In this document: positions 1,971-62,595 of the stretch, in pieces
How positions within the stretch are numbered: position 1 is the first letter of the stretch
How the letters are laid out: each line of letters starts with the position of its first letter
Assembly (NCBI RefSeq): GCF_016703145.1
Contig: NZ_JADJCO010000003.1
Location: forward strand, 317,163 to 381,162
Direction: 5' to 3'
Source: Ottowia sp.
GTDB lineage: Bacteria > Pseudomonadota > Gammaproteobacteria > Burkholderiales > Burkholderiaceae_C
Length of the DNA: 64,000 bases
Position numbers and translations under genes: made by a program
Notes under the pieces: model-generated
The model's database searches: none
Told to the model about the DNA's origin: nothing
What the model saw: the letters and a program-made list of their open reading frames with translations, nothing else

Positions 1971-2040
1971 TATGCTATTTAAATTATAGCTATCGGCGTA
2001 TGTTTCGCGCGGGCTGGGGCTCGAAAAAGCTTGTAAACGC
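1971..2040 (+). repeat. Dispersed ~60-70 bp repeat, copy 1
   Basis: TATGCTATTTAAATTATAGCTATCGGCGTATGTTTCGCGCGGGCTGGGGCTCGAAAAAGCTTGTAAA. Intergenic, between the hydrolase start and the ferredoxin stop. Confidence 0.75.
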
Positions 2041-2054
2041 CGGCTCGGGGCGAG

Positions 2055-2387
2055 TCAGCGGCCGAGGTGTGACGGCGTCAGCAGGCGCTCGACCACGCGG
2101 CCGTGCTTGAGGTGCGACTCGACGATCTCGTCGATGTCGCCGTGGTCCAGGTACGTGTACCACACCGCCTCGGGGTAGACCACGGCCACCGGCCCGCCGG
2201 CGCAGCGGTCCAGGCAGCCGGCCTTGTTGACCCGCACCCGGCCCGGCCCGGCCAGGCCCTCGGCCTTGACGCGCGCCTTGCAGTGGTCGAACGCGGCCTG
2301 CGCGCCGTGGTCGGCGCAGCAGGCTTCGCCGTTGTCGCGCTGGTTCAGGCAGAAGAAGATGTGGCGCTGGTAGTACGACGAACTCAT
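2055..2387 (-). CDS. Thioredoxin-like [2Fe-2S] ferredoxin
   Basis: 110 aa. HIFFCLNQRDNGEACC ... AGCLDRCAGGPVAVVYPEAVWY Cys pattern, typical of this ferredoxin class. Confidence 0.8.
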   Translation of the reverse strand: MSSSYYQRHIFFCLNQRDNGEACCADHGAQAAFDHCKARVKAEGLAGPGRVRVNKAGCLDRCAGGPVAVVYPEAVWYTYLDHGDIDEIVESHLKHGRVVERLLTPSHLGR

Positions 2388-3502
2388 GCGTCGATTCTAG
2401 GCGCCGCCCCCTCGCCGCGCCGCGCCAGGCGCACGATCAGGTAGACGAATGCGACGTAGGGCCACAGCCAGCCCACCCACTGCGCCAGCCCGTGGAAGTG
2501 GATGAAGCGCCCCTGCTCCCAACTCTGCAGCGTGGACGCGAAGTACGCGCTCTGCGGCGCCGCGTTGAGCAGCGCCAACTGCCCCATCAGCACCGCCATC
2601 AGCAGCACCACGCAGACCCGGGCCGGCAGGGGCAGCAGCAGGATGGCGGCCAGCGCGGCAGCCGGCAGGCCCAGCCGCACGGGCTCGCTGATCCAGGCCC
2701 AGGCGTACAGCGGCCCATAGGTCAGCGCCGCCGACAGCGCCGACGCCGCCACGCCCGCGGCCAGCGCCAGCAGCGCGAACAGCGCGCGCCGGCCCCGGTG
2801 CTGGATCACGGTGTAGCCCAGCAGACAGGGCACCAGCGCGCCCAGGGCGACGCAGGCCGTCTCGACGCCGGGCAGCAGCGGCTGCAGCTCGATCTCGCGC
2901 ACCGGCAGCCATTCCAGGAACGGCGTGTCCTGCAGCAGCGTGGCCAGGCCTTCCTCGGCGCGCTCGAACACCTGCCCCAGGCCGAAGGCGACCGGCGCTG
3001 GAAACAGCAGGCCCAGCGGCCACAGCGCCAGCAGCACCAGCGCCCCGCGCGAGTCGCGCACGAACCAGCGCGCGCGCAGGCGCCGCCAGCGGTCGATGGC
3101 GCCCAGCCGCTCCAGCACGAAGGCCGCCAGCGCGCCCAGGGCGCCACCGGCGGCGTTCAGCGCCAGGTCCAGGTTGGACGCCACGCGCAGCGGCAGGTAG
3201 GACTGCAGGCCCTCCAGCGTGAAGGACAGCAGCGCCGCCGCCAAGCTGGCCAGCGTCACCGCCGGCCAGCCGCGCCGCATGCGCATCAGCGCCAAGGCCA
3301 GCAGAAAGCCCAGCGGCGCGTAGCCGACCAGGTTGGCGACCAGGTCGAAGCGCGTCCAGTACTGCGGCAGCGGCGCGCTCAGGTAGGCCCAGGGCGCGAT
3401 GCCCTGGTCGCGCCAGCCGGTGAAGGGAAACAGGCTGGCATAGCCGATCAGCGTGGCGTAGAGCAGCGCCAGCGGCAGGGCGGCGGACTTGTGGCGTTGC
3501 AT
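2384..3502 (-). CDS. VanZ-like integral membrane protein
   Basis: Polytopic hydrophobic protein beginning MQRHKSAALPLALLYATLIGYASLFPFTGWR (VanZ-like N-terminus). Start trimmed to ATG 3502 (M76 of the track ORF). Confidence 0.55.
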   Translation of the reverse strand: MQRHKSAALPLALLYATLIGYASLFPFTGWRDQGIAPWAYLSAPLPQYWTRFDLVANLVGYAPLGFLLALALMRMRRGWPAVTLASLAAALLSFTLEGLQSYLPLRVASNLDLALNAAGGALGALAAFVLERLGAIDRWRRLRARWFVRDSRGALVLLALWPLGLLFPAPVAFGLGQVFERAEEGLATLLQDTPFLEWLPVREIELQPLLPGVETACVALGALVPCLLGYTVIQHRGRRALFALLALAAGVAASALSAALTYGPLYAWAWISEPVRLGLPAAALAAILLLPLPARVCVVLLMAVLMGQLALLNAAPQSAYFASTLQSWEQGRFIHFHGLAQWVGWLWPYVAFVYLIVRLARRGEGAAPRIDA

Positions 3503-3518
3503 GGCGCCGGCGCGGCCC

Positions 3519-3947: not shown

Positions 3948-6296
3948 TCGTCGAGTGTAGCCAGCCGCGGGGAAAAGGCCCGCCAAGCTGGCGCTGGCGA
4001 AGTTCGGGCCGCGCCCGCTCGATCATCGATCCGCGCGCCCTTGGACCCACATGCATACTGGCGCATGGTCGACGCTTCAGTCCCTGCCTCCAGAATTCAG
4101 AAGGCCCGAAGCACCCGCATCGTGGGCGTGGGTGCGTCCGCGGGTGGACTGGAACCGCTGGAACAGTTCATCTCCGGGGTTCCTACCGCCAGTGGCCTGG
4201 CCTATGTGGTCGTCCAGCACATGGACCCGACACACAAGGCCTTGCTGGGCGAGTTGCTGCAGCGGGTCACCGCGATGCCGGTGCATGAAGTGAGGGACGC
4301 GCAGCGCATCGAGCCCGATGTCGTGTACGTCATCCCCCCCAACACCGAACTCACGGTGGTCGAGGGCATGCTCCATCTGGCGAGCCCCTCGCAGTTGCAC
4401 GGACGGCGCTTGCCGATCGATGTGCTGTTCAGTTCACTGGCGCGGGAACTCGGCGACCGGGCCATCGGCGTCGTCCTGTCGGGCATGGGGTCGGACGGCA
4501 CGCTGGGGCTGCAGGCCATCCAGTCGCAAGGCGGCCTGACCCTGGCGCAGCAACCCGATTCAGCCCAGTTCGACGCCATGCCCAAAAGCGCCATCGCGGC
4601 CGGCTGCGTCGACATCGTCGCGCTGCCGGGCGAGATGCCGGCACGCATTCTGGGCGTCGCGGGCGCGCCGGCCGCGAGCGGGCCGGGGCTGCCCGAAGCG
4701 GGCGATCACGCGGCGGCACTGAACAGCATTCTGGGGCTGTTGCACGACCGCACCCGGCACGACCTCGCGGACTACAAGCCCAACACCCTCGTGCGCCGCA
4801 TCGGCCGCCGCATGGCGGTGCATTCCCTGGACACGATGACGGCCTACGCCGCCTTCCTGCGTCACAACACACAGGAGCTGGACCTGCTGTTCAAGGAGAT
4901 GCTGATCGGCGTCACCACCTTCTTTCGCGACCCCGAGGTCTGGCAGGAACTCCGGGACCAGGTTCTGCCGACCCTGCTCGCGCGCCATGCTGCAGCGGGC
5001 AACGGACCCCTGCGCGCCTGGGTGGTGGGTTGTTCGACTGGCGAGGAAGCCTACTCGCTGGCCATCACCTTCGCGGAGGTCCTGGAGTCGATGCCGCAAC
5101 GTGCTTCTTGCGAGCTGCAGATCTTCGCGACCGATCTGAACGCCGACGCGATCGCCGCGGCGCGCAACGGCCGCTTTGCCCCGACGATCACCCGGGATTT
5201 GACCCCCGCACGGTTGGCGAAGTTCTTCACCGAGCGGCCCGACGGCTACCAGATCGACAAGCGCATCCGCGACATGGTGCTGTTCGCCCAGCACGACGTG
5301 ATCCTCGATCCGCCGTTCACGCGCCTGGACATCCTGTCGTGCCGCAACCTGATGATCTATTTCAGCGCCGCCCTGCAACGGCGCCTGGTGCCGCTGTTCC
5401 ACTACAGCCTGCGCCACGGCGGTGCCTTGCTGCTGGGCAATTCGGAGACCGTCGGCCGTGCGCAGACGCTGTTCATTCCTCTCTCGCCAAAGTCCAGGCT
5501 CTTCTGGCGCGGCGACAATGCCGGTGCCGTCGACGCCATGGTCTTTCCGACCCACCGACGTCCCGCCTCGCCATCGGCGACGCAGGAGTCCACTGTGCCC
5601 GCATTGAATCCTCCTCTGGTCAACCTCCAATCCGTGGCCGACCAACTGCTCCTGCAGACGTTTTCGCCGCCGGCGGTGCTGGTCAACGACGGGGGCGACA
5701 TCGTCTACATCAGCGGACGCACCGGCCGCTATCTGGAGCCCGCGGCGGGCAAGGCGAACTGGAACATCCATGTGATGGCGCGGCCCGCCATTCGCACGCA
5801 ACTGGCGATTGCCTTGAGGACCGCGTTGCAAGACAAGACCCCGGTTCAGTTGCGCGGGCTGCGGCTCGATGATGAAACGACGGCCACGGTGGACATCACG
5901 GTGCAGGCCGTTCTGCAGCCCAAGTCCTTCGACGGCATGGCGATGATCGTCTTTCGCGATGCGGCCCTGCCGCCCAAGCGGCGCGGGCGGCTCGCCAAGT
6001 CGGCGGGCCCCGCGAACACGAGCGTGGAGGACGAGTTGGTTCGCGCACGCGCGGAGATCCAGGCGCTGCGGCAGGAGATGCGGGCGTCGCAGGAGGAACT
6101 GCAGGCGGCCAACGAGGAACTGCAATCGACGAACGAGGAACTGCAGTCGGCCAATGAGGAACTGACGACCTCCAAGGAAGAGGCGCAGTCGATGAACGAG
6201 GAACTGCAGACGATCAATGGCGAGTTGCAGTCGAAGCTCGATGACCTGGCGCTGTCGCAGAGCGACATGCAGAACCTGCTGAACAGCACCGACATC

Positions 6297-7735
6297 GGGC
6301 CTGTCTGAATTTTTGTGTTCGAGGCGGTTGGTTGATCTGCTCTCGATTGATTTCTCTTCTGTCTTCAGGCCCCTGCCGGTCGCGGCGCGGTGAGCCTGTA
6401 TTCTGGTTCCAACCTCCTTGCTGGCGCCATGGGTCGGCTGCGTGAAGCGATCTTCGTGGGTATCGCGAACTGGTTCTCGCCTCCTTCAATCCTTGGCTGC
6501 CCGTCCCCAGTCGGCCGTTATGTTGCGCAGCGCCAGCCAGATCAGCTTGGAGGCCGCATCGTCACTGGGGTGTCCCCGTGTCTTGATGATCTTGCGCAGT
6601 CGCGCGTTGATGCTCTCGATGGCGTTGGTCGTGTAGATCACCCGGCGGATGGACGGTGGAAATGCAAAGAACGGAATCACCGGTCCCCGCCCGACGCCAG
6701 GCCGCCACCACGGTGGGAACTTGACGCCCACGGGCCTTGAGCGAAGGCGTCGAGTTCGGCCTCGGCCGCCTCTGCGCTGGCGGCCGTGTAGATCGGCCTG
6801 ATGGCCGCCGCCAGCAACTTGCGATCCTTCCAACTGGCGTAGTCAGGGGTTGCGAATCAGGTGCACGATGCGTCTGGCGTGGTGGCCGGGTACACCGCCG
6901 CCAGCGCTTCGGGCATGCCCTTCAAGCCGTCGGTGACGGCAATGAGGATGTCATTGACCCGCGGGTCTTCAAGTCGTTGAACACCTTCATCCAGAACTTG
7001 GCGCCTTCGGTGCCCTCGATCCAAGCCCAGGATGTCGCGCGTGCCATCGGGCAACACGCCCAGCGCCAGGTAGATCGCCTTGTTGCGGACCACGGCATCC
7101 TCACGAATCTTGACCCGCAGGGCGTCGAAGAAGACCACCGGGTACATCGGCTCCAGCGGGCGCGCCTGCCAGGCGGTGACCTCGGCCATGACGGCGTCGG
7201 TGACCGAACTGATGAACTCGGGCGACACCTCCACGCCGTAGCTCTCCAGCAGGAAGCCCTGGATCTCGCGCATGGTCAGGCCGCGCGCGTACATGGCCAC
7301 GATCTTGTCGTCGAAGCCGGTGAAGCGGCGTTCGTGCTGGGGATGAGCACCGGCTCGAAGGAGCCGGCGCGGTCGCGCGGGACTTCGATGCGCAGCGGCC
7401 CATCGTCGGTCAGCAGGTCTTGGCGCTGCGGCCGTTGCGCTGGTTGGCAGTGCCGGCCTCGGGCTTGCTCGCGCCATTCGGGTAGCCCAAATGGTGCGAC
7501 ATCTCGGCACCCAGGGCGCGCTCGATCAACGCCTTCTTGAATGCCACCGTCGCCGCGTTCACGGCATCGCCGGTCATGGGCCCCGAGACGAACTGGTCAA
7601 TCAGCTCCTTCGGGATCGACGGCAGCGCCGCCATCTTGGCGGCGATCGCCGCGTTCTTCATCTTCGTCTTGCTCGTCGGCATACATGTTCCTGGTCGTCA
7701 TGCTATGCCTCGAACACAAAATTCAGGACAGGCTC
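6297..7735 (-). mobile_element. IS256-family insertion sequence, degenerate copy 1 (1439 bp)
   Basis: Terminal inverted repeats GGGCCTGTCTGAATTTTTGTGTTCGAGGC (6297-) and GCCTCGAACACAAAATTCAGGACAGGCTC (-7735). 8-bp direct duplication CCGACATC at 6289-6296 and 7736-7743. Confidence 0.85.
6486..7682 (-). pseudogene. IS256-family (mutator-type) transposase, multiple frameshifts
   Basis: The product is spread over three track ORFs: 7410..7682 (MPTSKTKMKNAAIAAKMAALPSIPKELIDQFVSGPMTG...), 6857..7510 and 6486..6833 ([30 protein letters not shown]). Confidence 0.85.
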
Positions 7736-10484: not shown

Positions 10485-10706
10485 GTCCGCGGGCGGCCGC
10501 CCGCGTACTGCACGCCTTGACAACGGAACACGTCGGAAACTGGGCGTTGTTGATGCACCCAGGGTAGCGTGCGTGTCTTTGCGCACAGACCGCGGCCACG
10601 GCCGGGTCTATGCTGGATTCGGTAGCGCAATCCTGCACGGTCCTTCTCCCAAGGCAAGGCGCCCAGCGTGACTCAGAAGCCGACGGGTTCCAACCGGGCG
10701 CACATG

Positions 10707-10805
10707 AAAAAACCCCGGCACAAGGGCCGGGGTGCAAAAGCCTGTCTGCTGTCACACATCTAGGCTCCCGCTCAGGGAGGAAAAGCGGGGAGCGGCGAAC
10801 CGCCC
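10707..10805 (-). ncRNA. Candidate ~99-nt small RNA (no family recognised)
   Basis: Predicted start is about 7 nt after the -10 box. Three hairpins: GGGCGG-UUCG-CCGCUC, CCCGC-UUUUCCUCCCUGA-GCGGG and AGCCU-N18-AGGCU. Then an intrinsic terminator CCCCGGC-CCUUGU-GCCGGGG followed by U6. Lies in the 456-bp crp-hemB spacer, antisense to both genes. Confidence 0.4.
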
Positions 10806-10844: not shown

Positions 10845-12000
<1,156 letters not shown>

Positions 12001-13841: not shown

Positions 13842-13852
13842 GCGGTTGACTC

Positions 13853-13912
13853 CTTTTTCAATAGCTGTTGGCGCAATGCGTGCGCGGTCTGGCGGCTGAT
13901 TCAACCCTCGAA
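13853..13912 (+). repeat. Dispersed repeat, copy 3
   Basis: TTTTCAATAGCTGTTGGCGCAATGCGTGCGCGGTCTGGCGGCTGATTCAACCC. Upstream of the dienelactone hydrolase gene. Confidence 0.8.
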
Positions 13913-14033
13913 CGCGGCGCGGGTGGCCGGCCGCGCCGGCGGCCAGGGTGCGGGCATCGTAGCGCGCCGGCCCGGGCCATCTCCTGAATAATGCGTGCCA
14001 GCCCGGCGGACGCCGGGCCTTTTGGAGCCTCTC

Positions 14034-14516
14034 ATGACCCACCCGCAAAAAGACATTCAATATTTCTGGGAAGACCTGGCCGTCGGCACCACGCTGGAGA
14101 TGGGCAGCGTGACCGTCGACCACGACGAGGTCATCGCCTTCGCCAGCAAGTACGACCCCCAGCCCTTCCACCTGGACGACGCGGCCGCCGCCAGGTCGAT
14201 CTTCGGCAAGCTCTCGGCCAGCGGCTGGCACACCTGCGCCATGGCCATGGGGCTGATGGTGCGCAACTTCCTGAACCAGGCGTCCAGCCTGGGCTCGCCC
14301 GGCCTGGAGCAGGTGAAGTGGCTCAGGCCCGTCCACCCCGGCGACACGCTCACGCTGCGCCAGCGCGTGGTCGAGTCGCGCCCCATGAAGTCGCGCCCCG
14401 ACGTCGGCCTGACCCGCACGCATTGGGAAATGTTCAACCAGCATGGCGAGCAGGTGCTGCTGATGGACGGCTACGGCATGTTCCGGCGGCGCACGCCGGC
14501 CGAGGCCGCGTCCTGA
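14034..14516 (+). CDS. MaoC-like (hot-dog fold) dehydratase
   Basis: GGAG RBS 6 nt upstream of the start. FASKYDPQPFHLD...SGWHTCAMAM...WLRPVHPGDTL is typical of MaoC dehydratase domains. Confidence 0.8.
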   Translation: MTHPQKDIQYFWEDLAVGTTLEMGSVTVDHDEVIAFASKYDPQPFHLDDAAAARSIFGKLSASGWHTCAMAMGLMVRNFLNQASSLGSPGLEQVKWLRPVHPGDTLTLRQRVVESRPMKSRPDVGLTRTHWEMFNQHGEQVLLMDGYGMFRRRTPAEAAS

Positions 14517-14518
14517 GC

Positions 14519-14574
14519 GATTTCGGGCACCAGCCCGCATGGGTATTTCGCCAAAAGCTATTTATTTGATAGCG
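14519..14574 (-). repeat. Dispersed repeat, copy 4 (inverted)
   Basis: The reverse complement reads GCTATCAAATAAATAGCTTTTGGCGAAATACCCATGCGGGCTGGTGCCCGAAATC. Lies between the convergent maoC-like gene and glcF. Confidence 0.8.
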
Positions 14575-15799
14575 ATTCGTCCAGCGCCTCGATCCAGTGC
14601 CGCACCGGCACGTCGGTGCCGGACTGCAGGTGCGTGATGCAGCCGATGTTGGCCGACAGGATGGCGGCCGGGCGCTCGGCGGCGCGCTCGCCCTGCAGAT
14701 GGCCCAGCTTGCGGTCGCGCAGGCGCGTGGCCAGCTCGGGCTGCAGCACCGAGTAGGTGCCGGCCGAGCCGCAGCACAGGTGCGGCTCCTGCGCCGCCGC
14801 CCGCAATGTGAAGCCGAGCGCGCGCAGGTGCTGCTCGACCCCGCCGCGCAGCTTCAGCCCGTGCTGCAGCGTGCAGGGCGGGTGCCAGGCCAGCGTGCCA
14901 GCGGGCGCGCGCACGCGGCCCGCCAGCGCGGCGGCGATGTCGGGCAGCAGTTCGCTCACGTCGCGCGCCAGGGCCGACACGCGCGCGGCCTTGTCGGCGT
15001 AACGCGCGTCGCCCCGCAGCAAGTGGCCGTAGTCCTTGACCATCGCGCCGCAGCCCGAGGCGTTGATGACCAGGCCTTCGGCCGCGCCGGATTCGAACCG
15101 CGGCCACCAGGCGTCGATGTTGGCGCGCATCTGCGCCAACCCGCCCTCGGCGTCGGCCAGGTGCCACTTCACCGCGCCGCAGCAGCCCTGGCCGCGCGGG
15201 CGCAGGCTCTGGATGCCCGCCGCGTCCAGCACGCGCGCCGTGGCGGTGTTGATGTTGGGCGCCATGGATGGCTGCACGCAGCCTTCCAGCAGCAGCACCT
15301 TGCGCGCGTGCGCGCGGGTGGGCCAGGCGCCGGCCGGCCGGCGCTCGGGCACCTTGGCCCGCAGCGCCGCCGGCAGCAGCCCGCGCACCGACTGGCCCAG
15401 GCGCATCGCCGGGCCGAACAGCGGCGACGACAGGCCGGCGCGCAGCAGCGCGCGCTGGCGCCGCTCGGCCGGCGGGCGCGGCACCTGGCGCTCCACCACC
15501 TGGCGGCCGATGTCCACCAGGTGGCCGTACTGCACGCCGCTGGGGCAGGTGGTCTCGCAGTTGCGGCAGGTGAGGCACCGGTCCAGGTGCAGCTGCGTCT
15601 GGCGCGTGGGCGCGTGGCCTTCCAGCACCTGCTTGATGAGGTAGATGCGCCCGCGCGGGCCGTCCAGCTCGTCGCCCAGCAGTTGGTAGGTGGGACAGGT
15701 GGCGGTGCAGAAGCCGCAGTGCACGCACTTGCGCAGGATGGCCTCGGCCTCGCGGCCTTCGGGCGTGCCTTGGAACTCGGGCGCGAGCGTGGTTTGCAT
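14558..15799 (-). CDS. glcF: Glycolate oxidase iron-sulfur subunit
   Basis: Two 4Fe-4S motifs (CVHCGFCTATCP, CLTCRNCETTCP) and CCG domains (GCCGAV, LCCGSAG). The start ATG overlaps the glcE stop (ATGA at 15799). Confidence 0.9.
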   Translation of the reverse strand: MQTTLAPEFQGTPEGREAEAILRKCVHCGFCTATCPTYQLLGDELDGPRGRIYLIKQVLEGHAPTRQTQLHLDRCLTCRNCETTCPSGVQYGHLVDIGRQVVERQVPRPPAERRQRALLRAGLSSPLFGPAMRLGQSVRGLLPAALRAKVPERRPAGAWPTRAHARKVLLLEGCVQPSMAPNINTATARVLDAAGIQSLRPRGQGCCGAVKWHLADAEGGLAQMRANIDAWWPRFESGAAEGLVINASGCGAMVKDYGHLLRGDARYADKAARVSALARDVSELLPDIAAALAGRVRAPAGTLAWHPPCTLQHGLKLRGGVEQHLRALGFTLRAAAQEPHLCCGSAGTYSVLQPELATRLRDRKLGHLQGERAAERPAAILSANIGCITHLQSGTDVPVRHWIEALDESLSNK

Positions 15800-16926: not shown

Positions 16927-16990
16927 ACTATGTTTTTTATAGCTATTGGCGCAACAAGGACAATGGCTTCCGGCCGATTTGGCACGAAGA
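16927..16990 (+). repeat. Dispersed repeat, copy 5
   Basis: CTATGTTTTTTATAGCTATTGGCGCAACAAGGACAATGGCTTCCGGCCGATTTGGCACGAAG. Lies between the glcE start and the amtB terminator. Confidence 0.75.
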
Positions 16991-16992
16991 AT

Positions 16993-17018
16993 AAAAAAAT
17001 CCCGCCGAGGAGGCGGGA
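16993..17018 (-). terminator. Intrinsic terminator of amtB
   Basis: Minus strand TCCCGCC-TCCTC-GGCGGGA followed by T7, 32 nt after the amtB stop. Confidence 0.8.
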
Positions 17019-17049
17019 TCAAGACCCTTCGCGGAGGCCAGAGGAGAAC

Positions 17050-18419: not shown

Positions 18420-18818
<399 letters not shown>

Positions 18819-18825
<7 letters not shown>

Positions 18826-21355: not shown

Positions 21356-21383
21356 AGGAGCATTCAGCGCTCCTGAAGCCGCC

Positions 21384-48440: not shown

Positions 48441-48444
48441 GGGC

Positions 48445-49593
48445 TCATCCTGCCAGCAACGCGATATACGCCACATAGCTGTAACTGCGGTGGGTCTTCT
48501 GGCCGGTCAGCTCAGAGACGATGCCCAAGTCCGCCAGCACCTTCACCGCCGCACTAGCGGTCGGAAAACTGGAGTCAAGCTTCTGGCGTACCTGCTCGAT
48601 GGTGAAGCGCGGCATCATCGGCAGCAACTCCAGCAGGCGATAGCTGGCCATGCCTCCCCTGGGCGACGCCAGCAGGCGGCGGCGGTCTTGCGCCAGCAGG
48701 GCGGCCACGGCCACGATGTTGCGCTCGGCCTCTTGCGCGGCCAGCGCCACGCCCTCCAGGAAGAACGCCACCCAGCCCTCCCAATCGCCCTCGGTGCGGA
48801 CGTTGGACAGGCGGCGGTAATACTCCTTCTGGTGCTGCTTCAAATAGCCGCTCACATACATCAGCGGCTCGGGCAGCAAGCCCCAGTGCTCCAGCAGTGC
48901 GGCGATCAGCAGGCGGCCCATGCGGCCATTGCCGTCCAGAAACGGGTGGATCGTCTCGAACTGCACGTGGATCAGCGCCGTCTTCACCAACGGCGGCAGG
49001 GGCTGGGCCTCGCCGTCATGGATGAAGCGCTCCAGGCCGGCCAGCAAATCAGGCACCCGCTCGGGCGGCGGCGGCACGAACACCGCGTTGCCGGGCCGCG
49101 TGCCGCCAATCCAGTTCTGCGAACGGCGCAGCTCGCCCGGCTGCTTGCCCTGGCCCCGCACGCCATCGAGCAGCAGGCGGTGCGCGTCGCACAGCAGGCG
49201 CACGCTGATGGGCAGGCCCGCCGGCTCGCGCAGGCTGTCCTGCACCAGCCGGAAGGCGCGCAGGTAGTTGGTCACCTCCTCCACGTCGTCGGTGTTGCTG
49301 ACCGTGAAACCGGCCTCCTCGTCGAACAGATCCACCAGCGTGGCCTGCGTGCCCTCGATCTGCGAGGTGAGCAACGCCTCTTTGCGAATGGCGCTGTACA
49401 AGAGCCAATCCACTGACGGCACCAGCCCCGCCACGCCAGCCAGCCGCGCCAGCGCCATCTCGGCGGCATGGTTAGCAGCGGCGAAGGATTCGGGCGCCAG
49501 CGGCGGATCAGCGGGCGGCAGCGGGTGCGGCACGAACGCCCGCACCGGCTCGCCCAGCGTGGTGGAGGTGATGGTGGTGCCGGTGCTGCGCAT
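48445..49593 (-). CDS. Fic-family protein (AMPylase-type) with Fic_N and C-terminal wHTH
   Basis: Catalytic motif [13 protein letters not shown]-terminal [16 protein letters not shown]. 382 aa. Confidence 0.9.
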
Positions 49594-49608
49594 GGGATGA
49601 AAGATGCT

Positions 49609-49983
49609 TTAAACCGAGTGCAGGGCGATTAAAGCATTCTTTAATGATGACCGTGGATGAAAAACTGCTTTCATGGCTGTCAGCAGCCCGCAGGCACGCA
49701 CCTGCCCAAACCCCACCCGCAGCGCCTGGCGGTAGCGCAGCACCTCCTTGGCGGCGGGGTTGGCAAACACCTCCGGCAGCACATCGTCCTTGAACCGCTC
49801 ATCGTGCGTGGTGACGATGTTCTCGATCTCCGAGCTGTCCTTGGCCTCCTGCAGGCCCAGGGTGCTGATCAGGATGCCCTGGTTGGGAATGGACGCCGCA
49901 ATGCCCTTGAGTTCCGCCAGCCTGCGGCTGCTGCTGGCCAACTTCTTGAGGATGGCGGGCGTGTCAAAGCGGGCGGCGTCCAT
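49609..49983 (-). pseudogene. Fragment (N-terminal ~100 aa) of a second Fic-family gene
   Basis: FDTPAILKKLASSSRRLAELKGIAASIPNQGILISTLGLQEAKDSSEIENIVTT...AAKEVLRYRQALRVGF is a Fic_N domain. No catalytic HPFxxGNGR follows. Confidence 0.65.
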
Positions 49984-50035
49984 CTGTTCGAGCGGGTGAG
50001 CAGGGGCATGGCGGGCCTACGGCGGGCTGGGATGC

Positions 50036-50102
50036 GTATAGAAAAGCCGGTTTTCTATACATGGTAGCCAGCATGTGTATAGGAAACGCCATTTTTTATA
50101 CA
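50036..50102. promoter_or_regulatory. Two adjacent AT-rich palindromes (candidate operator or bidirectional terminator)
   Basis: GTATAGAAAAGCCGGTTTTCTATAC (50036-50060) and TGTATAGGAAACGCCATTTTTTATACA (50076-50102) share the half-site TATAG(A/G)AAA. Confidence 0.35.
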
Positions 50103-50180
50103 TGTACGGTGCGGCATACATGCAAAGCGCCTTTTCAAGCATAGGGGACGGATGGCCGGTGTATCGCGCCAAGTTACCAA

Positions 50181-50238
50181 TGAAATCTGGCTCTAGCGCC
50201 TACCCATCAAGCGCAAGCAGCTATTCTTTAAATAGCAA
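50181..50238 (-). repeat. Dispersed repeat, copy 15 (inverted)
   Basis: The reverse complement reads GCTATTTAAAGAATAGCTGCTTGCGCTTGATGGGTAGGCGCTAGAGCCAGATTTCA. Lies downstream of the TIR gene. Confidence 0.7.
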
Positions 50239-50366
50239 CAAAAGCCTGAGTGTTGAAAGAGTTTTTGCATGAGCCGCTGGAAAGTCAACTCATACATCCG
50301 CACAGCTCGGTCTCCTGATCCGCGACTGGCATCGGCCAAGAGCGGACAGTTGTCGAGAGGAGTCGC

Positions 50367-51380
50367 TCAACTTCTGTGCTCGCCGTCAACGTGACGTGCA
50401 AAGGCATACTGGAGTAGTGAGGTTCTGCCTTGAATGTGCAGGACCCGGATCTGCATAAAAACACCATTTGCGTCTTCCAGTTCAAACGGTACATCGACTT
50501 CAAAAGTCGACGGCTGTTGGACGCCGCCGTTAATTGCGATATTGTCGGCGTAGAGGTACATGCGATTATGAGTATCTAGTATCGGATTTAGACGCCCCTC
50601 CAGCCCAGGAATATGCCCGGTGCTATGGCAGATGATCGAACCTGTGTTCTCTGAATCGAAAACTGTAACGGTTATATCAGTGCCAGGATCCCACGATTTA
50701 ATGACCGCACCTGGATATTTAGGATGAGCAACAAGCAGTTGATAGAGACGGCGCGTCGGTATGGACACAGCGGCCACGCCGTCTGCGGGGGTGACCGCAT
50801 TCTTCGTGGTGCCGTTGTCGGCGATGGCAGTAACCGATGCTCCTGCTACGGGTGAGCCACTTGAAGAGATGACGGAAACTCTCGCATGAACCGGGTCAAT
50901 ACGAGGTGCATTTTCCACTGAAAACATGGCGCGTCGTATCGACTCCGAAGGAATAGTGCGTCCGCTGTTCACCAGCTTCGTCTGAACTACCTTGACGAAC
51001 TCTTGAGGAGATCGTCCAGTTAGGGAGATGTATCCCACGGTTGATAGAACACCGGGAATCGGCGTGTCGTCGAACCTTGTTGGAAGTATGTACTCCTGAT
51101 GTTCCTGAAACGCGCGCGCTTGCATGGCCTGACGTTCGTGATTTGTCCACAGCTTGCGCGCGTAGTGCTCTGAAATGAACATGATCGTGTACAGCGCCTT
51201 ATTTTGATAGACGTCAGATAAGTATTCGTAGAGGTTCTTCCCCCAGAGGTTTGATTCTTCAAATAGATCGTAGAAGACCTTGACGCCTGAGTCTCGCAGC
51301 AAATTTGCGACTTGATCGACGTAAACTCTGTCTTCTCCGGCGAATGAAAGAGCGATCTCAAATTCGACTGTACGGTTCAT
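50367..51380 (-). CDS. TIR-domain protein with C-terminal beta-sandwich (CarboxypepD_reg-like) and an unassigned domain
   Basis: N-terminus EFEIALSFAGEDRVYVDQVANLLRDSGVKVFYDLFEESNLWGKNL...IMFISEHYARKLWTNHERQAMQARA matches the bacterial TIR_2 pattern, including a Glu (E82) at the expected catalytic position. The 337-aa frame is intact. The segment is AT-richer than its surroundings. Confidence 0.8.
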   Translation of the reverse strand: MNRTVEFEIALSFAGEDRVYVDQVANLLRDSGVKVFYDLFEESNLWGKNLYEYLSDVYQNKALYTIMFISEHYARKLWTNHERQAMQARAFQEHQEYILPTRFDDTPIPGVLSTVGYISLTGRSPQEFVKVVQTKLVNSGRTIPSESIRRAMFSVENAPRIDPVHARVSVISSSGSPVAGASVTAIADNGTTKNAVTPADGVAAVSIPTRRLYQLLVAHPKYPGAVIKSWDPGTDITVTVFDSENTGSIICHSTGHIPGLEGRLNPILDTHNRMYLYADNIAINGGVQQPSTFEVDVPFELEDANGVFMQIRVLHIQGRTSLLQYAFARHVDGEHRS

Positions 51381-51392
51381 ACTTTTCGATGC

Positions 51393-51635
51393 CTAAATTT
51401 TTTGCACGGAAGGCGCAATTCGGCCCGCATAGGCAGCCACTGTAAGCCCAGGCCGGATGATGCACGATGTTCTTTCGTATTTGGCTCCATAGTATCTGCC
51501 GATTCCCGCAACTAGAAAGGCTGCTATGAGGCCCAAATGCCAGATGGCTACAATGGGTCGATTCCTGCCGGAGATAACAGTGCAATTGGATGAAACCGAT
51601 TGCCGCATTGACTGGACATATGGCACTGGATTCAT
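51393..51635 (-). CDS. Hypothetical 80-aa single-pass membrane protein
   Basis: Its ATG overlaps the hsdS stop (ATGA, 51632-51635). One TM segment, PIVAIWHLGLIAAFLVAGIGRYYG. Its stop lies 13 nt before the TIR ATG. No homology recognised. Confidence 0.4.
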   Translation of the reverse strand: MNPVPYVQSMRQSVSSNCTVISGRNRPIVAIWHLGLIAAFLVAGIGRYYGAKYERTSCIIRPGLTVAAYAGRIAPSVQKI

Positions 51636-52235
51636 TGGCCATGAGAGTCTGGGATGCGACACCCCTCCTCTTGCAGGGTGTTGACGCCCGCTTCGGTCAA
51701 CGCCTCGGGTACGCGAAGCTGGCCGGAGATCAGACGGGGGAGCAGAGTATCGCGGAGGATAGTGAGAGTTTGGACTTGTTCTTCATTGGCACGCACGGTT
51801 TCATAAAGTGGCGAAATGTGTGCTGCGAAGGCTTCGGACACATCATTTCCTGGGTTCAGAAATTTGATCCGCCACATATTGGATTGACTCAGCTTCGCTT
51901 GGACTGCGCCCGTGATGTAAGGCTGAATATTCGTGCGCTGCAATGCAAGCATCAAATGCTCTGTAGATACTCCCGCCTTCCCTTGAATAATGTGTGCATG
52001 GTTATTTACCCAGAACTTTCCCCAAACATATTGCATGATTGGAAAGCCCTGCTCATCCGCAACCGATCCGTCCTCTCCTGCCAAAAGAAAGATGCCATCG
52101 AAAAGATAGCCATCAACGTAATCCATCAGGGCCGCCGCACCGTAGTATGGATATATGCCACGACGCTTGGCGCGTTCAGCACTTGATAGAGGAACACGCT
52201 TGGAATCAGAAATCGCGCATACCTCTTTTAGACTG

Positions 52236-53313
52236 GGCGGCCTCAAATCCGAAGTGCAACACCCCCTGCGGTAAGGTGTTCACATGCCATCCGCCTCCCG
52301 ATACGAACAACTCCAACCCGAAGACCGCATGACGATCGCGAGCATGCGCCAGCAAGGGCAAAGCGCGCGATGGCGCTGGGGCGATCGCCATCGACGATCA
52401 GCCGCGAGCTGGCGCGCAACACGGGCGCTGACGCGGCCTACGGCTCGCACCGCGCACAGCGTCCTGCCAGGCGCCGGCGTGCTGCCCGCCCTCTTGCCAA
52501 ACTGTCTTCTGACAGCCTGTCCTGGAGCCTGGTGATGACCCTGTTGGACTGGAAGTGGTCGCCCCAGCAGATTGCCGCTACCCTCAAGCGCACCTTTCCC
52601 AACGAGGCCGCGCGCCACGTGTCCCACGAAACCATCTACACCGCCATCTACGCCCAGCCTCGGGGCGAACTGCGCCGCCAGCTCATCGCCTGCCTGCGCC
52701 AGGGCCGTGGCACACGGTTGCCGCGCAGCCGTGGCACCGACCGGCGTGGCCAGATCCCCGAGATGGTCAGCATCCACTGCGCCCACCCGAGATCGAGGAT
52801 CGCGGATGCCCGGCCACTGGGAAGGCGACTTCATCAAGGGGCGGGCAACAAGTCCTCCGTGGGCGTGCTGGTGGAGCGCTCCAGCCGCCTGGTGCTGCTG
52901 GCCAAGATGGACGATGCCACGGCCAGCTCGGCGCTGGCCGGTTTCACGGCCAAGCTCAACGCGATTGCCGATCCGATGCGCAAGAGCTTCACCTACGACC
53001 AGGGCAAGGAGATGAGCTACCACCGGCACTGGCCGCCGCCAGGCGCAGGTCTACTTTGCGACCCCCACGCCCCTGGCAGCGCGGCACCTGCGAGAACACC
53101 AACGGGCTGCTGCGCCAGTACCTGCCCAGGGCACTGACCTGAGCGTGCACAGCCAGGACGAACTGGACGCCATCGCCGACAGCTTGAACAGCAGACCTCG
53201 CGCAACCCATGGCTTCAACACCCCGCTGGCCGTCTTCCACCTGCTGGCCATGGCTCAGCAGGCTCCAGTTCTCGCTCAATAACCACGTGTTGCGCTTCGG
53301 TCTTGAAACCGCC
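52236..53313 (+). mobile_element. IS30-family insertion sequence, degenerate (1078 bp)
   Basis: Inverted repeats GGCGGCCTCAAATCCGAAGTGCAACAC (left) and the reverse complement of GTGTTGCGCTTCGGTCTTGAAACCGCC (right). 3-bp duplication CTG at 52233-52235 and 53314-53316. Confidence 0.8.
52284..53282 (+). pseudogene. IS30-family transposase, at least 4 frameshifts
   Basis: Pieces lie in all three forward frames: YEQLQPEDRMTIASMRQQGQSAR / LGRSPSTISRELARN... / RPPEIEDR / MPGHWEGDFIKG / AGNKSSVGVLVERSSRLVLLAKM... / PWQRGTCENTNGLLRQYLP. Confidence 0.8.
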
Positions 53314-53635
53314 CTGCAATAGGCCCACCCTCTTGGTACCTCCCCTAACTCCGACGCCTCGAACCCATCCGGAAACAGCGCCGCCGTGGCCTCGTCCATG
53401 CCTTCGGGGGCGCGGCCTTGCATCTTGGCACTCACGGGGTCGAAATCGACGAACCACGACTTGAAGAGCGCCTGGGCGATGGCTTCGAGCGTGGCGTTGG
53501 CTTCGCGTAGGAGGGTGATGCGGTCGTCAAGCGGACGTAATGCCGCGGAAACCTCGCGCTGCACTTCAAGGCGGGGCGCTTCAAAGAAAATCTGACCAAA
53601 CGCTGACTTGTTCAGAATTGGTTGCGCGGAGCCCC

Positions 53636-55107
53636 GAGCCTGTCCTGAATTTTGTGTTCGAGGCATAGCATGACGACCAGGAACATGTATGCCGACGAGC
53701 AAGACGAAGATGAAGAACGCGGCGATCGCCGCCAAGATGGCGGCGCTGCCGTCGATCCCGAAGGAGCTGATTGACCAGTTCGTCTCGGGGCCCATGACCG
53801 GCGATGCCGTGAACGCGGCGACGGTGGCATTCAAGAAGGCGTTGATCGAGCGCGCCCTGGGTGCCGAGATGTCGCACCATTTGGGCTACCCGAATGGCGC
53901 GAGCAAGCCCGAGGCCGGCACTGCCAACCAGCGCAACGGCCGCAGCGCCAAGACCGTGCTGACCGACGATGGGCCGCTGCGCATCGAAGTCCCGCGCGAC
54001 CGCGCCGGCTCCTTCGAGCCGGTGCTCATCCCCAAGCACGAACGCCGCTTCACCGGCTTCGACGACAAGATCGTGGCCATGTACGCGCGCGGCCTGACCA
54101 TGCGCGAGATCCAGGGCTTCCTGCTGGAGAGCTACGGCGTGGAGGTGTCGCCCGAGTTCATCAGTTCGGTCACCGACGCCGTCATGGCCGAGGTCACCGC
54201 CTGGCAGGCGCGCCCGCTGGAGCCGAGGTACCCGGTGGTCTTCTTCGACGCCTTGCGCGTGAAGATCAAGGAAGACGCGGTGGTGCGCAACAAGGCCATC
54301 TACCTGGCCCTGGGCGTGCTGCCCGATGGCACGCGCGACATCCTGGGCTTGTGGATCGAGGGCACCGAAGGCGCCAAGTTCTGGATGAAGGTGTTCAACG
54401 ACTTGAAGACCCGCGGCGTCAATGACATCCTCATTGCCGTCACCGACGGCTTGAAGGGCATGCCCGAAGCGCTGGCGGCGGTGTCCGGCCACCACGCTGC
54501 AGACGTGCATCGTGCACCTGATTCGCAACTCCCTGGACTACGCCAGTTGGAAGGATCGCAAGCTGCTGGCGGCGGCCATCAGGCCGATCTACACGGCCGC
54601 CAGCGCAGAGGCGGCCGAGGCCGAACTCGACGCCTTCGCTCAAGGCCCGTGGGGCGTCAAGTTCCCCACCGTGGTGGCGGCCTGGCGTCGGGCGTGGGAC
54701 CGGGTGATTCCGTTCTTTGCATTTCCACCGTCCATCCGCCGGGTGATCTACACGACCAACGCCATCGAGAGCATCAACGCGCGACTGCGCAAGATCATCA
54801 AGACACGGGGACACTTCCCCCAGTGACGATGCGGCCTCCAAGCTGATCTGGCTGGCGCTGCGCAACATAACGGCCGACTGGGGACGGGCAGCCAAGGATT
54901 GGAAGGAGGCGATGAACCAGTTCGCGATACTCCACGAAGATCGCTTCACGCAGCCGACCCATGGCGCCAGCAGCAAGGAGGTTGAACCATGAATACATGG
55001 CTCAACCGGGGCGCCTCCGGCGGCCTGGCAGGGGCCTGAAGACAGAAGAGAAATCAATCGAGAGCAGATCAACCAACCGCCTCGAACACAAAAATTCAGA
55101 CAGGCCC
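53636..55107 (+). mobile_element. IS256-family insertion sequence, degenerate copy 2 (1472 bp)
   Basis: Same terminal repeats as copy 1 (GAGCCTGTCCTGAATTTTGTGTTCGAGGC ... GCCTCGAACACAAAAATTCAGACAGGCCC). 8-bp duplication GGAGCCCC at 53628-53635 and 55108-55115. Confidence 0.85.
53689..54992 (+). pseudogene. IS256-family transposase, at least 2 frameshifts
   Basis: ORF 53689..54846 is colinear with copy 1 up to ...GMPEALAAV. The product continues in ORF 54512..54826 ([18 protein letters not shown]...[22 protein letters not shown]) and then in a third frame (...[26 protein letters not shown]...). Confidence 0.85.
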
Positions 55108-55489
55108 GGAGCCCCCGGCAAGGCTGCGAATTTCATCCTTTCGCGTGTTCAGGTTGTAGTAAACGAACTCAGGGCAGAACTTCGACTCGTCAACCAAGAT
55201 CGCATTGATCTGCTGATTGGTAACGCATCGAGAGGCAGCAATCGCAGCCTTACCCATGTCTGAGCCGATGCATGTCACCAAAACGCTGCGTGGTGGTATG
55301 AGGCTGCCTTTGACAGACTGGGCTCCGGCCTCTGAGATGCTGCGAACGGTCTTGGTGATCCACTTGTTCCCCGAGAAATCAGGAGGAGACACAAACGGCA
55401 CGTCGTCGCCGCCGAAAGCGGGCACGCCACTCTTGGGTGTCTTTCCCGTAACTAAGCGACCGACTTCTTGAAGGCGGTACGTTCTCCAC

Positions 55490-57052
<1,563 letters not shown>

Positions 57053-58902: not shown

Positions 58903-58970
58903 CGATTTCAAGCCAAATCGGCCTCTAGCCCGCATGAATATTGAGCAAGCAGCTATTATTTTTGTAGTAA
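58903..58970 (-). repeat. Dispersed repeat, copy 16 (inverted)
   Basis: The reverse complement reads CTACAAAAATAATAGCTGCTTGCTCAATATTCATGCGGGCTAGAGGCCGATTTGGCTTGAAATCGTC. Lies between the SPFH and DUF4178 genes. Confidence 0.85.
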
Positions 58971-60030: not shown

Positions 60031-60188
60031 GGCCTGCCCTTCCGGTAGGGGAAAACGTCGGCGGATGATACGCGGGGCCCCCTGCCGGCGCGGACCACCG
60101 CGCGCGCTTCTCTACAATGGCCCGCACCTTCTGGCGCCACCTTCCAAAACCACAAGCGCGGCCGGCGCCCGCGCGAGGAGCACCGCCC

Positions 60189-62519
60189 ATGACCACCCCC
60201 CCGCCCGCCTCCACCGACGACAAGCGCGCCGAACTGCGCCGCGCCGCGCTCGACTACCACGAGTTTCCGGTGCCCGGCAAGGTTGCCATCTCGGCGACCA
60301 AGCAGATGATCAACCAGCGCGACCTGTCGCTGGCCTATTCGCCCGGCGTGGCCGCGCCGTGCGAGGAGATCGTCAAGGACCCGGTCAACGCCTTCAAGTA
60401 CACCGCGCGCGGCAACCTGGTGGCCGTCATCACCAACGGCACCGCGGTGCTGGGCCTGGGCGACATCGGCCCGCTGGCCTCCAAGCCGGTGATGGAAGGC
60501 AAGGGCGTGCTGTTCAAGAAGTTCGCCGGCGTGGACGTGTTCGACATCGAGATCGACGAGAAGGACCCCCAGAAGCTGGTGGATGTGATCGCCGCGCTGG
60601 AGCCCACCTTCGGCGCCATCAACCTCGAGGACATCAAGGCGCCGGACTGCTTCTACGTCGAGCGCGAGTTGCGCAAGCGCATGAAGATCCCGGTCTTCCA
60701 CGACGACCAGCACGGCACGGCCATCACGGTGGCGGCGGCCATGGTCAACGGACTGAAGGTGGCGGGCAAGGACATCGCCCAGGTCAAGGTAGTCACCTCC
60801 GGCGCCGGCGCGGCCGCGCTGGCCTGCCTGAACCTGCTGCTGAAGGTGGGCGTGCGGCGCCAGAACGTGTTCGTCACCGACCTGGCCGGCGTGGTCTACG
60901 AGGGCCGCGAGGAGCTGATGGACGACGACAAGCGCCAGTACATGCAGAAGACCGACGCGCGCACGCTGGCCGAGGTGATCGACGGCGCCGACGTGTTCCT
61001 GGGCCTGTCGGCCGGCGGCGTGCTCAAGCCCGAGATGGTGGCCCGGATGGCGCCGCGCCCCGTGATCTTCGCGCTGGCCAACCCCAACCCCGAGATCGCG
61101 CCCGAGGACGCGCACGCCGTGCGCGACGACATCATCATGGCCACCGGCCGCACCGACTACCCGAACCAGGTCAACAACGTCCTGTGCTTCCCGTACATCT
61201 TCCGCGGCGCGCTCGACTCGGGCGCCACCACCATCACCGACGAGATGGAACTGGCCGCTGTCCACGCCATCGCCGAGCTGGCGCAGGCCGAGCAGAGCGA
61301 GAAGGTGGCCGCCGCCTACGTGGGCGAGAAGCTCAGCTTCGGCCCTGAATACCTGATCCCCAAGCCGTTCGACCCGCGGCTGATGACCAAGATCGCGCCC
61401 GCGGTGGCCCAGGCCGCCGCGGACAGCGGCGTGGCGCTGCGCCCCATCACCGACATGGACGCCTACCGCGAAAAGCTGCAGAACTTCGTCTACGCCTCGG
61501 GCACGACGATGAAGCCCATCTTCGACGCCGCCCGGCGGGCCACCAAGAAGCGCGTGGCCTATGCCGAGGGCGAGGAGGAGCGCATTCTGCGCGCCTGCCA
61601 GATCGTGGTGGACGAGGGCCTGGCGCGCCCGACGCTGATCGGCCGGCCGGCCATCATCGCCCAGCGCATCGAGAAATTCGGCCTGCGCCTGCAGGAAGGG
61701 CGCGACTACGAAGTCGCCAGCACCGAGTTCGACCCCCGCTACCGCGACTTCTGGCAGACCTACCACCGCATGACCGAGCGCAAGGGCATCACCGCCCAGG
61801 TGGCCAAGATCGAGATGCGCCGGCGCCTGACGCTGATCGCCTGCATGATGCTGCACAAGGACGAGGTGGACGGGCTGATCTGCGGCACCTGGGGCACCAC
61901 GCTGCAGCACCTCACCTACATCGACCAGGTCATCGGCAAGCGCCCCGGCGGCGCCATCAGCACCGCGCAGGACGTGCCGGTGTACGCCTGCATGAACGGG
62001 CTGCTGCTGCCAGACCGGCAGGTGTTCCTGGTGGACACCCACGTCAACTACGACCCCACGCCCGAGGAGCTGTGCGAGATCACCGCCCTGGCGGCCGAGG
62101 AGATGGTGCGCTTCGGCATCCAGCCCAAGGCGGCGCTGTTGTCGCACTCCAACTTCGGCACCAGCAACCAGCCCACGGCGGTCAAGATGCGCCGCACGCT
62201 GGAGCTGCTGCGCGAGCAGACCCCCTGGCTGGAAGTGGACGGCGAGATGCACGGCGACGTGGCGCTGGACGGCCAGCAACGCGCCACCGTGATGCCGAGC
62301 AGCCCTCTGCACGGCGATGCCAACCTGCTGGTGTTTCCCAACATCGACGCCGCCAACATCGCCTACAACCTGCTCAGGACCGTCGCTGGCGGCAACATTG
62401 CCATCGGCCCGGTGCTGCTCGGCGCGGCCAAACCCGTGCACATTGTCACGGCCAGCGCCACCGTGCGCCGCATCGTCAACCTGACGGCGCTTACCGTGGC
62501 CGACGCGAACGCCGATTAG
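60189..62519 (+). CDS. maeB: NADP-dependent malic enzyme (malic plus PTA-like domains)
   Basis: [37 protein letters not shown]-like ALANPNPEI. The C-terminal phosphate-acetyltransferase-like domain runs to ...[11 protein letters not shown]. Confidence 0.92.
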
Positions 62520-62562
62520 TAGAGCCCCGCCACTTTAGTGAGCGCACACTAATCGCGCGCCG

Positions 62563-62595
62563 GGATAGTCCTGCGCAGTGCCTGTGATTTAAGCA
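62563..62595 (+). repeat. Dispersed repeat, short degenerate copy 17
   Basis: GGATAGTCCTGCGCAGTGCCTGTGATTTAAGC retains the ATAG..CTGCGCA...TGATTTAA spacing, with the central core deleted. Confidence 0.4.

Follow-up and report, generated by a model that had tools for sequence, protein, structure and literature searches.

A dense family of ~66-nt dispersed repeats in the genomes of Ottowia and other Comamonadaceae

Here we describe a family of short dispersed repeats that is densely packed in a 64,000-nt stretch of Ottowia sp. DNA (assembly GCF_016703145.1, contig NZ_JADJCO010000003.1, positions 317,163 to 381,162 of the forward strand; hereafter the window, in whose own numbering all positions are given). 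The family is genuine and is restricted to part of the Comamonadaceae. Its ~66-nt element enters the genome as a block, both between genes and in frame within them, and parts of its sequence are kept at the nucleotide level against the codon bias of the host gene. We put at about even the chance that it is an old, non-autonomous insertion family that behaves like the repetitive extragenic palindromic (REP) sequences and the Rickettsia palindromic elements (RPEs), and that is recognised as DNA by a trans-acting factor.

Starting from 12 seed copies, a profile hidden Markov model (HMM), iterated in nhmmer until convergence, recovered 18 copies in the window, 16 clear and 2 weak, with E values from 2e-16 to 4e-6. 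Fourteen are on the forward strand (starts at 1973, 11934, 13849, 16927, 18760, 26073, 31872 (weak), 32718, 34322, 36083, 39784, 40638 (weak), 47096 and 63893) and four on the reverse strand (14515, 21300, 50180 and 58907), which is close to the 17 copies at 13:4 counted in a preliminary description drawn from the letters alone. A degenerate core pattern matched the window 29 times against 5.2 ± 2.1 in shuffles, and none of 100 shuffles reached 29. A repeat finder returned several families of 59–63 nt whose copies are only 60–76% identical. The copies have a mean GC content of 46% against 68.7% for the whole window. They occur at one per 3.6 kb in the window and, across the sampled loci of other genomes, at about one per 9 kb.

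An alignment of 272 distinct copies gave the ~66-nt consensus tT-GCTAy-N7-rTAGCTGCyyGCGC-N11-GGGCTrGAGGCCGATTTGGCTyaAAA, in which the recurrent blocks are AGCT, GCGC, GGGCT and GAGGCCGATTTGGCT. Conservation along the element is very uneven: the central AGC is kept in ~270 of the 272 copies, whereas the N11 stretch is near random. The most conserved block, (A/G)TAGC, lies inside the element, with ATAG commoner than GTAG. The arm pair GCTAT-N7-ATAGC that had been claimed for the family is present in most copies. The 41-nt consensus proposed alongside it did capture a real family, but in the dialect of one species; only one place matches it at three or fewer mismatches. The element carries no open reading frame (ORF) of its own. 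Across the 272 copies no terminal inverted repeats are seen, TTGCTAy at one end not being the inverse of GGCTyaAAA at the other, and the flanks show no conservation and no target duplication beyond a weak T-rich pair, their sole signal; the preliminary description had likewise seen neither target duplications nor an encoded protein.

Comparison of filled and empty sites shows that the element is inserted as a block. The purB–yaeQ spacer measures 3–16 nt in many genera, but six lineages have the element there, each time with its ATAGC end adjoining yaeQ; in other genera, it holds two inverted half copies or a different, GC-rich repeat. We also assembled a series of 80 trmJ loci from 80 species that is unbiased for the repeat. 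About 12 of these loci have the empty allele (HFAALTSPAAQEAGQRPESVAF), most have a full copy (including those of Polaromonas, Acidovorax, Curvibacter and Simplicispira), and a third group of ~20 alleles retains the 5′ half only. HMM scores in the series run from 54 bits down to undetectable. The coexistence of empty, full and half alleles, together with these falling scores, indicates that the trmJ insertion is old, crosses genera and is decaying. Half copies (rTAGCTGC..GCGC plus a short hairpin) occur at three purB–yaeQ loci as well as in the ~20 trmJ alleles, some as inverted pairs, and may represent a related, shorter and more REP-like sub-family.

Insertion extends into coding sequence, a feature that, like the span of many genera described below, the preliminary description had overlooked. 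In-frame copies with coding signal on both sides account for 35 of 256 copies (14%), 19 in forward and 16 in reverse orientation, and three reading frames are used: one forward, encoding LSKxELLA-x4-GLEADLA, and two reverse, encoding KPNQPPAL...AATKS and QAKSASGP...SSYS. Among the host genes are trmJ, purL, dapF, cobQ and others for XdhA-like, UvrA-like, HrpA-like helicase and EamA transporter proteins; those in the window are hsdR, topA, a glcD-like gene and an amine oxidase gene. DapF and TrmJ are 11–14 residues longer at the insertion site than homologues of solved structure (PDB). In HsdR, the extra loop lies between helicase motifs II (DEAH) and III (TGTP) and is missing from four homologues; a look-up of the window's HsdR by exact protein sequence returned no record.

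The distribution of copies follows the classic REP-like 3′-end pattern, yet without an orientation rule. We classified ~244 copies with a simple codon-position gene caller, checked against public gene calls. Convergent spacers hold 58 copies (0.84 per kb of spacer DNA), tandem spacers 103 (0.51 per kb) and divergent spacers 17 (0.19 per kb), making convergent spacers 4.4 times denser in copies than divergent ones. The median distance from the upstream stop codon to the copy is 18 nt, copies overlap the stop codons of hemB, mlaD and a glcF-like gene, and in the public gene calls many short spacers consist almost wholly of a copy. The location at gene boundaries noted previously is thus borne out, whereas the 'strong orientation bias' reported with it disappears on wider counting. 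Extending the count by 10 kb to either side within this genome brought four more copies, all in the minority orientation (14:8), and the 14:4 skew of the window is a local run, not a family trait. In tandem spacers, copies lie with and against transcription at 49:54, and in other genomes neighbouring copies have the same or opposite orientation at 55:52, with only 1 of 107 adjacent pairs less than 20 nt apart. Orientation was not significantly related to local GC skew (p 0.10–0.83). With no GC-skew link, no clustering of neighbours and a bias lost in the flanks, a replication-linked orientation was rejected.

Within trmJ, the element blocks are kept against codon bias across ~55 species. Leu is CTA in 42 of 43 cases at the element site and in 0.8% elsewhere in the gene; the corresponding values are 80% and 6.5% for Ser TCA, 86% and 8.5% for Gly GGG, 31 of 31 and 28% for Asp GAT, and 83% and 15% for Leu TTG. 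Outside the element, just one column of the 188 that are conserved has a rare codon fixed, and the identity at synonymous third positions is 0.62. This codon choice means that selection on the protein cannot account for the retention. The exact 21-mer identity of in-ORF copies was dropped as evidence of constraint, because those copies had been chosen by that very pattern, and the trmJ series was used instead.

The variable loop, by contrast with the fixed blocks, is a genome dialect. N11 identity is 47% within a genome versus 33% between genomes, a difference that none of 500 permutations reached. In three Ottowia species, copies that share a syntenic site have species-specific loops, which read CAATAyCCAyGCGGGC in the species of the window and CTTGCCAGACAAGCGC in the other two. 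Such loops imply concerted evolution, replacement of copies, or co-evolution with a reader. Dialect also bears on a type I restriction–modification island at 45156–57052, which comprises hsdR, two Fic-family genes, a TIR-domain gene (50367–51392, local GC 51%), hsdS disrupted by an insertion sequence (IS), and hsdM. One copy had been placed in this island, next to the TIR gene, and taken as a sign of activity of the family later than the acquisition of the island. The copy listed at 50180 does adjoin the TIR gene, and a second, at 47096, lies within hsdR. Both have the loop dialect of other genera rather than that of the host and therefore most likely came with the island, so the argument for later activity fails.

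The exact 21-mer of the 3′ block was found at >119 loci, nearly all in Comamonadaceae genera or unclassified Burkholderiales metagenome-assembled genomes (MAGs). The genera among the matches listed are Acidovorax, Polaromonas, Rhodoferax, Simplicispira, Giesbergeria, Ottowia, Curvibacter, Melaminivora, Ramlibacter and Brachymonas, and the other matches are MAGs with no genus name or an implausible one. In 80 purB-centred loci, a sample unbiased for the repeat, HMM matches were confined to the Comamonadaceae type (Acidovorax, Polaromonas, Giesbergeria and Rhodoferax, with weaker matches in Hydrogenophaga and Comamonas), and none was obtained in Limnohabitans, Caenimonas, Burkholderia, Paraburkholderia, Massilia, Cupriavidus and others. 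The HMM and 21-mer scans thus show the family in many genera. A few Comamonadaceae plasmids also bear copies, and among viral contigs the 21-mer occurs in just 2 of 2.9 million. The family matches no Rfam family: a gathering-threshold scan of the whole window returned only the anti-hemB RNA, and a permissive scan of the best copy returned nothing relevant. We found no published description of it in the searchable literature.

Three short candidate hairpins can be drawn on the element, which also contains the short palindromes GCTAT-N7-ATAGC and GGCC-N5-GGCT. The Watson–Crick fraction of each candidate pair equals the expectation under independence, and mutual information is high between adjacent columns only, so a structured RNA or single-stranded DNA was rejected. 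In a gap-free alignment of 47 sequences, paired cells amounted to 74.5% versus 73.8% after shuffling, and the covariation score was 0.153 versus 0.149. The RNAalifold consensus fold has an energy of −0.21 kcal/mol, which is essentially no structure, and the mean minimum-free-energy z-score is about −1.2. Compensatory changes in the GCTAy/rTAGC arms were considered and are not upheld by the counts at the pair (CT 54, AG 43, CG 8). Covariation, counted on the alignments, was therefore not detected for any base pair. No sigma-70-like site lies within any copy, and manual checks of sigma-54, sigma-32 and IHF motifs gave no fit to the family consensus. Terminator-like hits are at chance level overall and rarely fall in copies, and the element has no U-tract, in agreement with the earlier view that these are not simple terminators.

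Taken with the fixed blocks, which are conserved where base pairs are not, these results suggest that the element is read as a DNA sequence and not as a folded RNA. In the insertion reading, a protein acting in trans would read it, most likely the enzyme by which the element is copied or maintained; a RAYT/HUH-type enzyme or another host-resident recombinase is possible. The element survives where it does little harm: just past stops, in convergent gaps, in the short spacers of operons and, when in frame, in protein surface loops. Lineage dialects would arise from co-evolution with the factor or from gene conversion among copies. The copies in the Ottowia genome would now be fixed and essentially immobile, and the host would have put some of them to use as spacer, ribosome-binding site, start codon or protein linker.

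Several observations weigh against this interpretation. No mobilising enzyme was found near copies in the window by Pfam search. The 175-aa gene between the inverted copies 13849 and 14515, a candidate transposase by position, encodes a MaoC dehydratase (Pfam), and other short inverted copy pairs also bracket ordinary genes. The IS256 family accounts for the sole transposase of the window. Strain-level contigs of 97–99.9% identity have all copies in place (ten around yaeQ, eight around glnK), and because no insertion polymorphism was seen among close strains in these surroundings, mobility is deduced solely from comparison between genera. Exact insertion boundaries could not be placed, as no filled/empty pair is close enough and inter-species flanks are too diverged. 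Retention within ORFs and at orthologous sites across genera exceeds what a purely selfish, decaying element should show, and points to a host-level function or ongoing gene conversion. Finally, the decay in trmJ, from full copies to half copies and from 54 bits to undetectable, means that the constraint on the blocks is not absolute.

The IS256-family element is present as two inverted copies, at 6296–7735 and at 53636–55108 (transposase 53689–54846, Pfam Transposase_mut). One lies within hsdS; the other truncates a cheB/cheR fusion gene and is missing from GCA_016703855.1. The window is 99.94% identical to contig JADJBG010000005.1 of that assembly, and must come from a different strain or assembly given that the cheB/cheR copy is missing there. 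For its YaeQ protein, the closest relatives that bear a name are from Ottowia.

An alternative, which we regard as doubtful, is that the element is first of all a DNA signal serving the host, its blocks binding a conserved chromosomal protein (a nucleoid protein, gyrase or an IHF-like protein, as in bacterial interspersed mosaic elements (BIMEs)) or forming a self-recognition signal upheld by molecular drive, with insertion being secondary. A little more doubtful still is the specific form in which a 66-nt double-stranded DNA signal for chromosome organisation or self-DNA is read by a conserved Comamonadaceae protein, is kept by selection or molecular drive, within essential genes and against codon bias too, and acquires its dialects as that protein co-evolves with its hundreds of sites. 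The orientation-independent placement, the blocks conserved without covariation and held against codon bias in trmJ, the dialects even at orthologous sites, the density of about one copy per 4–9 kb, the conservation across genera and the near-absence from phages would all fit such a signal. Against it, many Comamonadaceae loci and whole genera in the purB sample have no copy, orthologous copies decay and disappear, and no candidate binding protein is known. The uptake sequences of Pasteurellaceae (USS) and Neisseriaceae (DUS) offer a parallel, being likewise dense, orientation-free, dialect-forming, conserved at the DNA level and found in preferred ORF frames. However, they have 9–12-nt cores that arise by point mutation, whereas the Comamonadaceae element is an inserted 66-nt composite, and the resemblance is one of genomic signatures only. 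A literature search found no report of uptake sequences in Comamonadaceae and none linking the element to competence.

It is less probable again, and in our judgement distinctly unlikely, that the copies are neutral fossils of one ancient burst, alike only through ectopic gene conversion within a pool of hundreds of copies, and involving neither factor nor function. Species-specific dialects at orthologous sites, the lack of polymorphism among strains and the failure to find a transposase agree with this idea. Nevertheless, copies within a genome are only 60–76% identical and the longest block they share is ~21 nt, which is short for RecA-dependent conversion. Conversion tracts would also have homogenised N11 together with AGC, whereas the former is near random and the latter ~100% conserved, and copy sites differ between genera. 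Least likely of all is an RNA-level 3′-untranslated-region element that stabilises or terminates the upstream mRNA as REPs do, or acts as a small RNA: its position close behind stops, its enrichment between convergent genes and its short palindromes would suit such a role, but the two orientations relative to the upstream gene are equally frequent, covariation, consensus fold, U-tract and Rfam match are lacking, terminator- and promoter-like hits are at chance level and 14% of copies lie within ORFs. The small- or structured-RNA role entertained in the preliminary description is accordingly unlikely.

The element shares features with several known repeat classes. Like the REPs and BIMEs of enterobacteria and pseudomonads (RAYT-mobilised; REPINs), it is short, numerous and non-coding, lies in extragenic positions just 3′ of genes in high copy number, is rare in divergent, promoter-bearing spacers and has neither terminal inverted repeats nor target-site duplications. 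There are also a few inverted half-copy pairs (two loci). The invariant (A/G)TAGC core may recall the GTAG or CGTC tag found at the foot of the REP hairpin, although it lies internally and mostly reads ATAG. REPs, however, form a stable hairpin from a 20–40-nt imperfect palindrome, which the element lacks; it is twice the length of a REP and occurs mostly as singletons oriented independently of their neighbours. REPs are usually species-specific, whereas the element sequence is conserved across genera, and the association with a single-copy RAYT (Y1 HUH) gene flanked by inverted repeats that characterises REPs was not found near copies, the material covered being the window and loci of 8–21 kb. 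RPEs of Rickettsia and in-frame MITEs (miniature transposable elements with inverted repeats), such as those of Coxiella, also insert in frame into housekeeping genes, adding loop peptides, and occur between genes as well. DapF, TrmJ and HsdR reproduce this behaviour, with homologues that lack the segment, but not the RPE sequence. The hosts are unrelated too: here they are free-living bacteria with large genomes, and the element is non-palindromic, uses three frames and keeps its nucleotides against codon bias.

MITEs with terminal inverted repeats (Correia/NEMIS, ERIC, RUP) are comparable in being non-autonomous, dispersed, placed at gene junctions and able to donate expression signals, but the element has no such repeats, no target-site duplication and no related IS end. 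It also shows neither the replication-related strand bias, judged by local GC skew, nor the fixed tetra- or pentanucleotide 5′ of the insertion that IS200/IS605-derived elements (PATE) would have, and its ends lack the RYYYAAC...GTTRRRY cores of integron attC sites. The Betaproteobacterial repeat element (BRE) is ~90 bp long with 69% GC, forms tandem arrays of varying copy number and is found in Bordetella, Polaromonas, Acidovorax, Delftia and Rhodoferax, mostly between genes with some in coding sequence (Hot et al. 2011, PMC3110155). Identity with BRE is ruled out by the length (66 nt), GC content (46%) and single, dispersed arrangement of our element. A distinct GC-rich repeat of ~100 nt (CCCCCTGAGCGGC...GGGGGACAACGCCAGTGGCCCGGCC...), seen in the purB–yaeQ spacer of four other Comamonadaceae loci, does fit the BRE description.

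Most copies of the window fill or border spacers (scores are nhmmer bits). The copy at 1973–2037 (+, 44.1 bits, E 8e-13) fills an 84-nt spacer between the stop of a 110-aa gene (2055–2387, −) and the start of a hydrolase gene (~1970, −). That at 11934–11998 (+, 30.9 bits) covers the last codons and stop of hemB (10941–11951) and lies in the hemB–corA spacer; the anti-hemB small RNA (RF02837, 64.9 bits; Rfam) is located just upstream of hemB, at 10704–10791 (−). The copy at 13849–13913 (+, 40.7 bits) occupies a divergent spacer between a dienelactone-hydrolase gene (−) and the MaoC dehydratase gene (+) (Pfam), at whose other end the copy at 14511–14575 (listed as 14515; −, 51.9 bits) spans the convergent stops of the MaoC gene (+, 14516) and the glcF-like Fe–S gene (−, stop at 14558 inside the copy). 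At 16927–16991 (+, 44.5 bits), a copy is placed between the amtB terminator hairpin (16998–17020) and the start of a glcE-like gene (16869, −). The copy at 18760–18824 (+, 49.2 bits) constitutes the entire spacer of 60 nt that separates the stop of Gcw_chp (18819) from the start of glnK (18758), and provides the AAGGA ribosome-binding site. The copy at 21299–21363 (listed as 21300; −, 31.8 bits) is flanked by two convergent genes, comM, with its stop at 21296, and a 194-aa gene, with its stop at 21384.

Overlapping the mlaD stop, the copy at 26073–26137 (+, 47.8 bits) holds the likely ATG (26108) of a PF03886 lipoprotein together with the opening codons of its signal peptide (translation MRARTLFLLIPVILTGC); the alternative starts of this lipoprotein in public gene calls fall within the copy as well. 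The copy at 32718–32782 (+, 47.7 bits) lies 9 nt past the stop of a 156-aa gene, upstream of a major facilitator superfamily transporter gene. It has orthologous copies in two other loci compared, and a 33-aa ORF covers its counterpart in public gene calls. The copy at 34322–34386 (+, 50.3 bits) fills the 75-nt spacer between a 55-aa gene and a DUF2007 gene, and that at 36083–36147 (+, 45.5 bits) lies in the 86-nt purB–yaeQ spacer. In the low-GC island, the copy at 50174–50238 (listed as 50180; −, 37.1 bits) has the stop of the TIR gene (50367) on one side and the start of Fic_N (49983) on the other, and the best copy, at 58905–58969 (listed as 58907; −, 55.4 bits), sits between the stop of a Band_7 gene (58995) and the start of a DUF4178 gene (58876).

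The remaining copies lie inside genes. A weak copy at 31872–31920 (+, 22.9 bits) lies within the Lys/Ala/Pro-rich C-terminal linker of topoisomerase I (29262–32213), and the same site is occupied in two other Ottowia species. The FAD amine oxidase gene (−) has a copy at 39784–39848 (+, 51.6 bits), in frame in its C-terminal part and common to four Ottowia species. A weak match at 40638–40679 (+, 24.5 bits), in the middle of the same gene, has its coding sequence kept in three species; it could be an ancient copy that was exapted, or resemble the element by chance. The amine oxidase gene (39662–41310, −) is split by a frameshift into ORFs of 426 and 129 aa; it is intact at 545–547 aa in three other Ottowia species, and the window gene is a pseudogene or reflects an assembly error. 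The copy at 47096–47160 (+, 44.4 bits) is in frame inside hsdR (45156–48440, −), and that at 63893–63957 (+, 33.3 bits) is in frame near the N terminus of a GlcD-like FAD oxidase gene (starting at ~63854, +). A possible degenerate remnant read from the sequence at 62563–62600 (+, GGGATAGTCCTGCGCAGTGCCTGTGATTTAAGC), which probably set the end coordinate of the preliminary description, gave no nhmmer match at E<0.05 and is not a significant 19th copy. Two adjacent genes at 62681–63588 encode a ribonuclease (barnase-like) and a barstar. Elsewhere in the window, the cheB/cheR fusion gene contains tandem 21-nt (7-codon) repeats at 6052–6219 (AGGAACTGCAG...), probably coiled-coil heptads.

The family also reaches beyond its hosts through a gene cassette. 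By blastn, ~1,745 enterobacterial plasmids in PLSDB match the element, via the orfF/gcuF cassette of the widespread, clinical dfrA12–orfF–aadA2 class 1 integron. The cassette (for example, in pCTX-M3, NC_004464.2, at ~66,700) holds a full copy (37.7 bits with nhmmer, E 1e-11), whose strand is opposite to that of the annotated 96-aa 'DUF1010' ORF. The C-terminal end of the 96-aa OrfF reads through the attC site of the cassette, and the repeat copy is separate from attC. Pfam DUF1010 was rejected as an alias of the element: within the part of OrfF that matches DUF1010, only about the first 16 residues derive from the copy, the match runs at its C-terminal end through attC, and translated window copies have no DUF1010 match. 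The presence of a Comamonadaceae repeat suggests that the orfF/gcuF cassette derives from a Comamonadaceae genome, and the annotated 'DUF1010' ORF may be spurious.

Extrapolation from the sampled loci gives several hundred to ~1,000 copies per genome. At such numbers the family matters for annotation, as copies create false small ORFs and misplace start codons, and they may explain the excess of conserved intergenic 'missing genes' reported in Acidovorax and Delftia (Warren et al. 2010). Copies also extend TrmJ, DapF, PurL, UvrA-like, HsdR and other proteins by 11–22 residues. A bacterial repeat does not usually combine retention at the nucleotide level within ORFs with genome-specific dialects at orthologous sites, and this combination makes the question of whether such an element is selfish, converted or functional a testable one.

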